IMG/VR virus record: IMGVR_UViG_2529293039_000013
Length of the DNA stretch: 50,040 nucleotides
Reading direction: 5' to 3' (one strand)
Origin: a virus
Lineage: Duplodnaviria > Heunggongvirae > Uroviricota > Caudoviricetes
Both the position numbers and the translations under genes were made by a program. Shown in pieces: positions 9,896 to 10,887 of this stretch (position 1 is the stretch's first letter; each line of letters opens with the position of its first letter). Below the pieces are notes generated by a model. The model made no database searches. It was given only the letters and a program-made list of their open reading frames with translations, and was not told the DNA's origin.

Positions 9896-10887
9896 GCCGT
9901 TACGCCCCCACACCGGAAGTTATGGCTATTGGTCAAATTAATATTTCCGGCAATGTTACACCTGCGACCTGGTGGAAATATATTCGACTACCCAGTGGGC
10001 GTCCGGATGCGACGGCTATCGCTCTGCTTTCAGAGATCGTTTACTGGTACCGCCCGACAGAGGTCAGGGATGAGCACACCGGAGCGTTGCTGGGATATCG
10101 CAAGCGTTTTCAGGGCGACAAACTGCAAAGAAGCTACCAGGCGTTTGCTGAGCAGTTTGGTTTCGGGAAAAGGGAAACCGCAGATGCGCTGAAGCGTCTG
10201 CGCGATGCAGGGTTTATTACTCTGGATTTACGCACGGTGGAAATGCTCGATGGGGTGAAATGCAGCAATATTTTGTTTGTCGGGATCAACCCACAGGCAA
10301 TTGCGGCCATCACCACACCTTCTTCTGTTTCGCCAGAAAGTAACAGCAATAATGCAATCAGCGATACAGCTATTACGTTAAAACGGAACACCCCCCGACG
10401 TCATAACGGAACAGGGGATACGCCGAATGTTGATACAAATACAGAGATTACTACAGAGATTACTACAGAGATTACAACGGAGACTAAAAACACTATTGGC
10501 GCATCCGCTGACGCGTCTGCACCAGCGCGTTCTGCCAGACAGGAATATTCACCGGAATTTGAACAGGCCTGGCAGGAATATCCCAAACGTGCTGGTGGTA
10601 ATTCAAAATCCGCCGCTTTTAAAGCCTGGAAAGCCCGAATCAGGGAAGGTGTGACACCCGAAACCATGCTCGACGGTGTGAAACGCTATGCCGCCTGGGT
10701 GCGTGTCTCTGGAAATACCGGTACCCAGTTCGTGAAGCAGGCGTCGATGTTCTTTGGTCCGGATCGTCATTTCGAAGAATCCTGGGAAGTTCCTGCGGTA
10801 TCTGCAGCCAGACGCGAGGACCCGTACTTCAAAGCCAGTTACGACAACGTGGACTACAGCCAGATCCCGGAAGGATTCAGGGGGTGA
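9892..10887 (+). CDS. phage replication protein with DnaT-like C-terminal domain
   Basis: C-terminus ...SQIPEGFRG resembles E. coli DnaT C-terminus (from memory); internal tandem repeats. Confidence 0.55.
   Translation: MSRYAPTPEVMAIGQINISGNVTPATWWKYIRLPSGRPDATAIALLSEIVYWYRPTEVRDEHTGALLGYRKRFQGDKLQRSYQAFAEQFGFGKRETADALKRLRDAGFITLDLRTVEMLDGVKCSNILFVGINPQAIAAITTPSSVSPESNSNNAISDTAITLKRNTPRRHNGTGDTPNVDTNTEITTEITTEITTETKNTIGASADASAPARSARQEYSPEFEQAWQEYPKRAGGNSKSAAFKAWKARIREGVTPETMLDGVKRYAAWVRVSGNTGTQFVKQASMFFGPDRHFEESWEVPAVSAARREDPYFKASYDNVDYSQIPEGFRG
10441..10485. repeat. 12-bp direct repeats, about 3.5 copies, inside replication gene (putative origin iterons)
   Basis: acagagattact repeated in tandem, encoding TEITTEITTEITTE. 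Confidence 0.6.

Follow-up and report, generated by a model that had tools for sequence, protein, structure and literature searches.

A 50,040-nt stretch of DNA from a member of the Caudoviricetes (IMG/VR record IMGVR_UViG_2529293039_000013; the whole stretch is called the window below) carries a lambdoid prophage whose candidate replication initiator gene contains, in the part that codes for a predicted disordered linker, a block of abutting 12-bp tandem repeats that, to judge from codon comparisons, is conserved as DNA and not as peptide. Judged from its sequence, this linker-coding region (~10374-10500) is most likely the origin of the prophage, and we give an even chance to the proposal that the 12-mers are the constant half of a two-part, lambda-like origin, placed beside lineage-specific 14-bp dyads that would serve as its binding sites.

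The block was recovered by TRF as a period-12 array at 10440-10483 (3.7 copies, 93% matches, score 74), and direct reading resolved it into three copies and one degenerate copy at 10441-10488. A pattern of two consecutive units matched three times in the window against 0.00 matches expected from 100 dinucleotide-preserving shuffles, confirming the earlier note on this DNA, which had seen a tandem 12-bp repeat inside the replication gene. The array encodes TEITTEITTEITTE / DTNTEITTEITTEITTETKN, within the peptide context DTNTEITTEITTEITTETKNTI of the open reading frame (ORF) translation, and the family consensus of the unit over 179 unique loci is ACA-R-AG-A-N-TAC-W. The 12-mers correspond to amino acids 184-199 and the proposed origin repeats together to amino acids 161-199, inside the predicted linker, a low-complexity, predicted-disordered segment between a winged-helix N-terminal domain (N-domain) and a helical C-terminal domain (C-domain).

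To separate constraint on DNA from constraint on protein, we compared codons between the window and the Serratia, Yersinia, Rosenbergiella and Arsenophonus orthologues, which share 43-59% amino acid identity. Third-codon-position identity was 0.3-0.5 across the N-domain, even where amino acid identity reaches 0.95, and rose to 0.7-1.0 over amino acids 160-195 and to 0.94-0.95 on TNTEITTEIT. The synonymous sites of the 12-mer are fixed across phages of E. coli, Yersinia, Arsenophonus, Acinetobacter and Bacillus cereus, at local G+C contents of 0.30-0.64, and the linker sequence flanking the block diverges completely. When members of the first N-domain family (family A) were retrieved by protein similarity, every unit read ACA GAG AnT ACT at local G+C contents of 0.33-0.58, and the distant loci of this family, including relatives of Bacillus cereus-group and Acinetobacter phages, all read ...ACA (A/T)AT ACA GAG AnT ACT ACA (G/A)AG AnT ACT ACA.... 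A second N-domain family, of the MSLLLKVKPLV...ICYWLEDT type, was also retrieved by protein and scanned with a codon-agnostic detector; the tetrads were found in 64 of its 77 unique genes, where glutamate in the block was encoded by GAG in 170 of 170 cases, as against 579 GAG and 663 GAA codons elsewhere, and threonine in the block by ACA 274 times, ACT 70 times and ACG once.

Over the 179 unique loci, a set fetched in part by the DNA pattern itself and so biased in its counts, the unit reads A-C-A-(G>A)-A-G-A-N-T-A-C-(T/A) with 10-11 of 12 positions fixed, and the glutamate codons of the block comprise 424 GAG and no GAA, although the remainder of the ORF uses GAA 1328 times and GAG 460 times at the loci with a G+C content below 0.42. 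Most of the variation falls on unit position 8, the middle base of the isoleucine codon, and yields I, T, N or S in the peptide. Frameshifted gene calls retain the DNA of the block and read it as QRLL/QRLLQRLL or RDYY/RDYYRDYY. Because the synonymous sites are fixed while the residue at the third position of the tetrad varies, we conclude from the codon evidence that the constraint acts on the 12-mer as DNA, not on the peptide. GAA never takes the place of GAG, AT-rich hosts included, which implies that the 12-mer is recognised by its sequence. A gene overprinted in the +1 frame was considered and rejected: this frame reads QRLLQRLL with conservative variation, but it has no conserved start, the median open stretch is only 10 codons on the upstream side and 29 on the downstream side, and in B. 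cereus-type phages the frame spans ~14 codons. In the window itself, a 75-amino-acid ORF in the +1 frame (10427-10654) has a start ATG shortly upstream of the block and a leucine-zipper-like translation, IQRLLQRLLQRLQRRL; because this frame is not conserved in other lineages, the ORF is regarded as a by-product of the block.

The 12-mer is spread far beyond the lambdoid phages. An exact-pattern scan of viral contigs returned at least 120 stretches, and in the 80 loci that were found in this way and examined, the block lay in the same place and frame in every case, with the N-domain undetected by the family-A hidden Markov model in 56. At least 3-4 N-domain families, with many different upstream repeats, have the same 12-mer behind them, always in the same orientation relative to transcription. 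Of 150 diverse sequences representing 7021 relatives, 137 have the N-domain, and about 100 of these show a recognisable block. Between the two main N-domain families that carry the block, the alignment is only marginal and covers an (I/L)xYW helix together with the winged helix (hhalign probability 43%, E 2.5e-4), so that a common superfamily appears plausible from the alignment. The block is not universal, being absent from the initiators of TP901-1 and S. aureus phage 80.

Within its class, the block combines independently with the protein domains on either side. Two loci (L008 and L010) keep the N-domain and the block next to unrelated C-domains, and the C-domain of the initiator in the window is common to initiators with other N-domains, those of phages cdtI and SfV and of Stx phages. 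DNA homology to the cdtI, SfV and Stx phage genes begins at or after the repeat; in particular, an Stx2 phage (L001) has another N-domain, yet the DNA that it shares with the window starts exactly at the first unit. Homology to Stx phage genes begins at gene position 549, which is 10440 in the window. The cdtI and SfV initiators, which come from E. coli phages and combine an HTH_36 N-domain with the same C-domain, have iterons of their own and a different tandem 12-mer, GAACCAGTCAAW; because these two differ, the type of 12-mer follows the class of N-domain and not the host or the C-domain. The units in cdtI (L093, ~2530-2600) and SfV (L094) are GAACCAGTCAAA / GAACCAGTCAAT / GAACCAATAGCT (EPVKEPVNEPIA), with an extra copy AGAACCAGTCAC in another reading frame, and their number likewise varies among relatives, from EPVNEP to EPVKEPVKEPVNEP.

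Directly upstream of the block lie lineage-specific palindromes with a period of 22-23 bp, of which the window contains three candidates (Table 1) with periods of 23 and 22; of these only the first fits the dyad pattern perfectly, the pattern itself being clear in relatives. The first is the positional homologue of TACGTTgaAACGKA in the Yersinia and Serratia orthologues, and the third that of the last dyad, TACGTTgaAAAGTG, in L006. Because candidates 1 and 2 lie in different reading frames, the dyad repeat is a DNA-level feature. The palindrome is TACGTTnnAACG(T/G)A in enterobacterial members, GACGTTnnAACGTC in four copies in L154, TTACTTnnAAGTAA in the B. cereus type, GGTCAAAAACGACCA in L197, GAGGGCAAATTGCCCTC in L186 and of a CCC/GGG type in the Stx2 phage L001. 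The predicted recognition helix varies with the lineage, KRE or KRQ going with ACGT cores and KLQ with ACTT, and a unit of two dyads (45 bp, TPPTLKRNTPLRSDV) occurs in one to three copies in Yersinia relatives. A gap of 5-8 nt separates the last palindrome from the first 12-mer in every family examined; in all lineages of family A this junction is 8 nt long and similar in sequence, AGAC(A/G)(A/T)AT. Lineage-specific dyads of this kind are more likely than the 12-mers to act as specificity iterons. The 12-mers themselves are unlikely to do so because, as far as the comparison reaches, they are identical in families with different DNA-binding domains.

The block also stands out physically. The least stable duplex segments of 40 and 60 bp between 6000 and 14000 start at 10434 and 10437, where the free energy (dG) reaches -45.1, compared with -57.5 on average (z 2.65, within roughly the top 1% of the window). 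A+T makes up 67.6% of the segment 10428-10498, whose coding strand is A-rich (AT skew +0.34), so that, as in lambda, a low-stability, AT-rich segment adjoins the candidate iterons. The earlier note had suggested looking for an AT-rich unwinding element next to the repeat; no separate element was found, the block itself being the local stability minimum. A hairpin or cruciform was ruled out, both strands of 10428-10500 being unstructured; the single strand of the block has a minimum free energy of 0, and none of 200 shuffles folded less well. The block contains no Rfam family and no promoter-like site, and inspection by eye, with no dedicated tool run, gave no convincing match to a DnaA box, an IHF site or a 13-mer consensus.

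Copy number was compared by measuring the stretch between fixed flanks in 80 near-identical IMG/VR prophage copies and the window. The flank-to-flank length was 17 nt in one locus, 29-30 nt in 66, 41 nt in 12, the window included, and 53 nt in one, corresponding to one, two, three and four units before a terminal ACAACGGAG. Relatives in the protein database span the same range, from NTEITTETKN to NTEITTEITTETKN, with three units in the window, and over the 179 unique loci the number of in-register units was two in 87, three in 80, four in 10 and five in two. The number of repeats, whose conservation the earlier note had proposed as a check, thus varies from 1 to 4 among near-identical prophages and from 2 to 5 across the family, and the copy number of the 12-mers drifts by slippage. 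With respect to unwinding-element repeats, the block consists of 2-5 units of conserved sequence lying 5-8 nt from the last dyad.

The DNA-level constraint, the position and architecture of the block, its low duplex stability and its varying copy number are observed; from them we infer a two-part origin, the protein that reads each kind of repeat, and the unwinding. In this scheme the winged-helix N-domain of the initiator would bind the dyads at 10374-10432, and the duplex would open at the abutting array (10441-10488 together with its A-rich flanks), where the C-domain would bring the helicase. A conserved part of the initiator would read the sequence of the 12-mers, possibly as single-stranded DNA, for which Rep and DnaA on the 13-mers of RK2 oriV and oriC, and DnaD on its single-strand recognition element, are possible precedents; the TEIT peptide would be a tolerated by-product that serves as a flexible linker. 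Because the 12-mer type depends on N-domain class, the putative reader is more likely to be a conserved part of the initiator than a host factor. Several observations weigh against this proposal. A motif invariant at 11 of 12 positions across N-domain families that are only marginally homologous is hard to explain by a reading initiator. In the window, the dyad pattern is not enriched (31 matches against 31.2 expected at three mismatches), and the iteron call rests on comparison with other lineages because the dyads of the window are few, degenerate and unenriched. At ~67% A+T the block is only moderately meltable, its A+T content does not exceed that of the neighbouring DNA in low-GC hosts, and easy melting alone cannot explain the conservation because GAG is invariant though GAA melts more easily. 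The biased retrieval of the 179-locus set counts on the same side.

The alternative that survives best, though we consider it unlikely, is that the 12-mers are classical double-stranded iterons on which initiator protomers sit side by side to nucleate the origin complex, with the dyads in an auxiliary or regulatory role. This would agree with the high information per unit (10-11 fixed positions), with tandem copies that always number at least two, with the company of N-domains that share the conserved (I/L)xYW helix and winged helix, and with the other 12-mer of the other N-domain class (cdtI and SfV). The same 12-mer, however, goes with different recognition helices (KRE, KLQ and KKQ) and different upstream palindromes, its units adjoin head to tail without a spacer at a 12-bp period that is out of helical phase, as opposed to the ~17-22 bp helically phased units of iterons, and among near-identical prophages there may be anywhere from 1 to 4 of them. 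It is the upstream dyads that match lambda iterons in size, symmetry and ~2-turn spacing. The earlier note had suggested that the repeat could be both an interdomain linker and the origin, in the form of candidate iterons. Its dual reading as linker and origin-type DNA element is supported by the predicted disorder, the third-position identity and the invariant codons, whereas a role as initiator-specific iterons is not supported, given the recurrence of one 12-mer across N-domain families and upstream repeats, with a change of sequence only between N-domain classes.

A second alternative, less probable again and in our view doubtful, takes the block as a conserved joint for homologous exchange between origin-binding and helicase-recruiting modules, without a direct role in initiation. 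Any conserved sequence becomes a crossover point, and the coincidence of mosaic boundaries with the block (the Stx homology from 10440 onward), the same N-domain and block with three unrelated C-domains, and the same C-domain with several N-domains, all of which such a joint would produce, may be consequences of conservation and not its cause. An exchange joint would leave unexplained both the identity between Bacillus, Acinetobacter and enterobacterial phages, which rarely meet, and the fixed distance of 5-8 nt to the last dyad.

Still less credence goes to the idea that a component or process of the host reads the block, whether as a signal for priming or helicase entry or as a transcription or R-loop signal on the purine-rich coding strand. 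No DnaA box (by eye), promoter or Rfam match was found in the block, and cdtI and SfV use a different 12-mer with the same host and the same C-domain, even though a universal reader would best fit a motif that does not vary between phyla or between weakly related initiator families, as well as the constant orientation relative to transcription. That the repeat is nothing but a slippage-prone, low-complexity linker, conserved in DNA through recent descent or horizontal spread, is very improbable: it would fit the predicted disorder and the expansion and contraction of perfect units among close relatives, but it is disfavoured by the codon statistics, with synonymous sites frozen while tetrad position 3 varies between I, T, N and S, GAG exclusive also in genes that otherwise use mostly GAA, and a flanking linker that diverges completely.

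The two-part origin proposed here places its elements within a single gene, whose features are listed with their neighbours in Table 1.

Table 1. Coordinates of the initiator gene, its domains, the candidate origin elements and the regulatory genes in the window.
Feature	Position	Strand	Basis or remark
Candidate replication initiator gene, 331 aa	9892-10887	+	ORF; match to phrog_270 'replication initiation protein', E 6.5e-76
N-terminal winged-helix domain, aa 1-140	9892-10311	+	AlphaFold, alignment A1
Disordered interdomain linker, aa 141-216	10312-10539	+	pLDDT <50, without secondary structure (AlphaFold)
Candidate iteron 1, TACGTTaaAACGGA	10374-10387	.	14-bp dyad coding for conserved TLKRN; exact match to the dyad pattern
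Candidate iteron 2, GACGTCatAACGGA	10397-10410	.	Different reading frame (RRHNG); direct repeat D4, spacing 23; two mismatches
Candidate iteron 3, TACGCCgaATGTTG	10419-10432	.	Degenerate, 22 bp after iteron 2; direct reading, weak alone
Junction, 8 nt, ATACAAAT	10433-10440	+	Between last dyad and first 12-mer
12-mer units 1 and 2, both ACAGAGATTACT	10441-10452, 10453-10464	+	Direct reading
12-mer unit 3, ACAGAGATTACA	10465-10476	+	Direct reading
Degenerate unit 4, ACGGAGACTAAA	10477-10488	+	Repeat family D1, 87% copy
A-rich tail, AACACTATTGG	10489-10499	+	Codes for KNTIG; closes the low-stability segment 10428-10498
Near-palindrome, GCTGACGCGTCTGC	10507-10520	.	G+C-rich, right of the block; inverted repeat I8
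C-terminal helical domain, aa 217-331	10540-10884	+	pLDDT ~90 over aa 217-303 (AlphaFold)
cI-like repressor	6663-7316	-	
cro-like gene	7412-7609		

The near-palindrome to the right of the block is also present in the Stx2 phage L001 (inverted repeat I6 there). Relatives of the 331-amino-acid protein are named 'replication protein' by NCBI. In an AlphaFold run with a 27-sequence alignment, the N-domain was modelled at medium confidence with helices at 78-89 and 93-105 and a beta wing at 109-132; its invariant segment, from the invariant columns of alignment A1, is IVYWYRP...KRFxGDKLQRSY...FGFxKRE. Foldseek returned weak winged-helix similarity for the predicted N-domain, including the DnaD N-terminal domain 2v79 (E 0.13), and the C-domain is presumed to recruit the helicase. 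The protein has no Pfam match at E<=0.01, and is thus not a member of Pfam Phage_rep_O, and no PDB sequence match at E<=1; its 'O-like' PHROG matches are weak (E 3.7e-8 and 5.7e-5). The earlier note had called the protein DnaT-like, a label that finds no support in Pfam, in PDB or among the Foldseek hits, which lack DnaT and show the weak winged-helix similarity only, and that is backed only by database names such as 'primosomal protein'.

The initiator gene lies in the early-right operon of the lambdoid prophage, where the cro-like gene is followed by a CII-like gene, an Ash/Rha gene, small ORFs, the initiator, Dam, a LexA-like gene and RusA; the ORF list of the window shows no lambda P-like loader gene 3' of the initiator. 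In three loci (L002-L004) with nearly the same initiator, genes for a DnaC-like ATPase and a DnaB-like helicase come next, and the C-terminal tail of the initiator differs from about amino acid 300. The window (10784-11635) has a tail of the cdtI/SfV type, followed by a tiny ORF, Dam, the LexA-like gene and RusA without helicase genes, which suggests a module swap at the 3' end of the initiator gene. Immediately upstream, a 99-amino-acid ORF (9596-9895) matches phrog_4617 'replication initiation protein' in its N-terminal part only and overlaps the initiator start by ATGA; it is kept in relatives (WP_000995578 in L002 and L003) and may encode a further small DNA-binding protein within the replication module.

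Elsewhere in the window, a 22-bp repeat (1.9 copies, 7339-7380) in the divergent cI-cro intergenic region probably contains operator sites. The Rfam families isrK (8578-8654, 62 bits) and C4 antisense RNA (8679-8766, 81 bits) both match within the ORF 8218-9378, which has Ash and Rha domains, and the true start of this protein gene is probably downstream of the two RNAs, as in the P1/P7-type c4-ant antirepressor control. The late part of the prophage has three consecutive tRNA genes (15439-15685) and a copy of the small RNA STnc100 (17058-17227, 102 bits). A 45-bp tandem repeat of two copies (46128-46218, score 133) is rich in GGn CCn and would fit a tail-fibre gene with a collagen-like Gly-X-Y stretch.

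The origin of phage lambda lies within gene O at the domain junction and consists of four 18-19 bp iterons followed by a 38-bp AT-rich segment (PMC3349717). The region described here resembles it in several respects: a candidate origin in the linker-coding part of an initiator gene, candidate dyads spaced at about two helical turns and directly followed by a segment of low stability that is A-rich on the coding strand, and, as we propose, an N-domain that binds the origin and a C-domain that recruits the helicase system (PMC3349717); the lambda linker peptide DTKDTITKEK is also rich in T, K, E and I. It differs in that the initiator lacks Pfam Phage_rep_O and is followed by no P-like loader gene in the window, and in that the AT-rich segment is replaced by tandem 12-mers of exact, fixed sequence, conserved far beyond lambdoid phages. 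Aligned by hand, the lambda AT-rich segment GACACAAAAGACACTATTACAAAAGA (L092, 39119-39160) and positions 10433-10499 of the window, GATACAAATACAGAGATTACTACAGA...AAAAACACTATT, have ACACTATT in common and are ~55% identical, and the two segments may share a distant ancestry.

Other systems offer partial parallels. At RK2 oriV, Rep binds the repeated 13-mers of the unwinding element sequence-specifically on one strand, and both their exact sequence and their position matter (PMC4980987). The 12-mers resemble the 13-mers of oriC and RK2 in being short tandem repeats (12-13 nt, 2-5 copies) that adjoin initiator sites, but they lie inside coding sequence, are only 67% A+T and would unwind by our proposal. 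The rep gene of TP901-1, annotated as experimental, likewise has the repeats of its origin inside it, flanked by the sequences for an N-terminal binding domain and a C-terminal domain; this phage and S. aureus phage 80 differ in their N-domain type and in having a generic N/T-rich AT stretch after the iterons instead of the ACARAGANTACW block. In Bacillus oriC, DnaD binds a specific single-strand recognition element (PMC10201434). The DnaA-trios and the DnaD element are short sequence-specific motifs in an unwinding region that initiation proteins read as single strands, as may be the case for the 12-mers, and the winged-helix N-domain of DnaD weakly resembles the predicted N-domain here (PMC10201434), whereas the 12-mers bear no resemblance to TTATT or to 3'-GAT-5' arrays of at least three. 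Searches for the DNA and peptide strings of the motif found nothing in open-access papers, which leaves an older description possible, and searches on RepA_N and replisome-organizer origins likewise returned nothing on this motif.

An origin inside the initiator gene is already known, and the gene described here is an unmapped member of this group with a non-lambda initiator. What we did not find described in open-access papers is a nearly invariant 12-nt DNA word beside variable iterons, which crosses initiator families and phyla at local G+C contents of 0.30-0.64. More tentatively, and with odds that we put somewhat against it, ACA-R-AG-A-N-TAC-W may be a previously unrecognised sequence-specific origin element of a very large superfamily of phage winged-helix initiators in Firmicutes and Proteobacteria, read by a surface other than the recognition helix and probably as single-stranded DNA. 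If this superfamily-wide reading is true, the element would be the phage counterpart of the DnaA-trios and the DnaD element, marking the exact origin in thousands of genomes. If the block is an element of unwinding or helicase entry, a one-line signature would locate the origins of very many temperate phages, and the two halves of these origins would be separable into a 'specificity' half and a 'constant' half. The block would also account for the domain junction of the initiator as a hot spot of module exchange.

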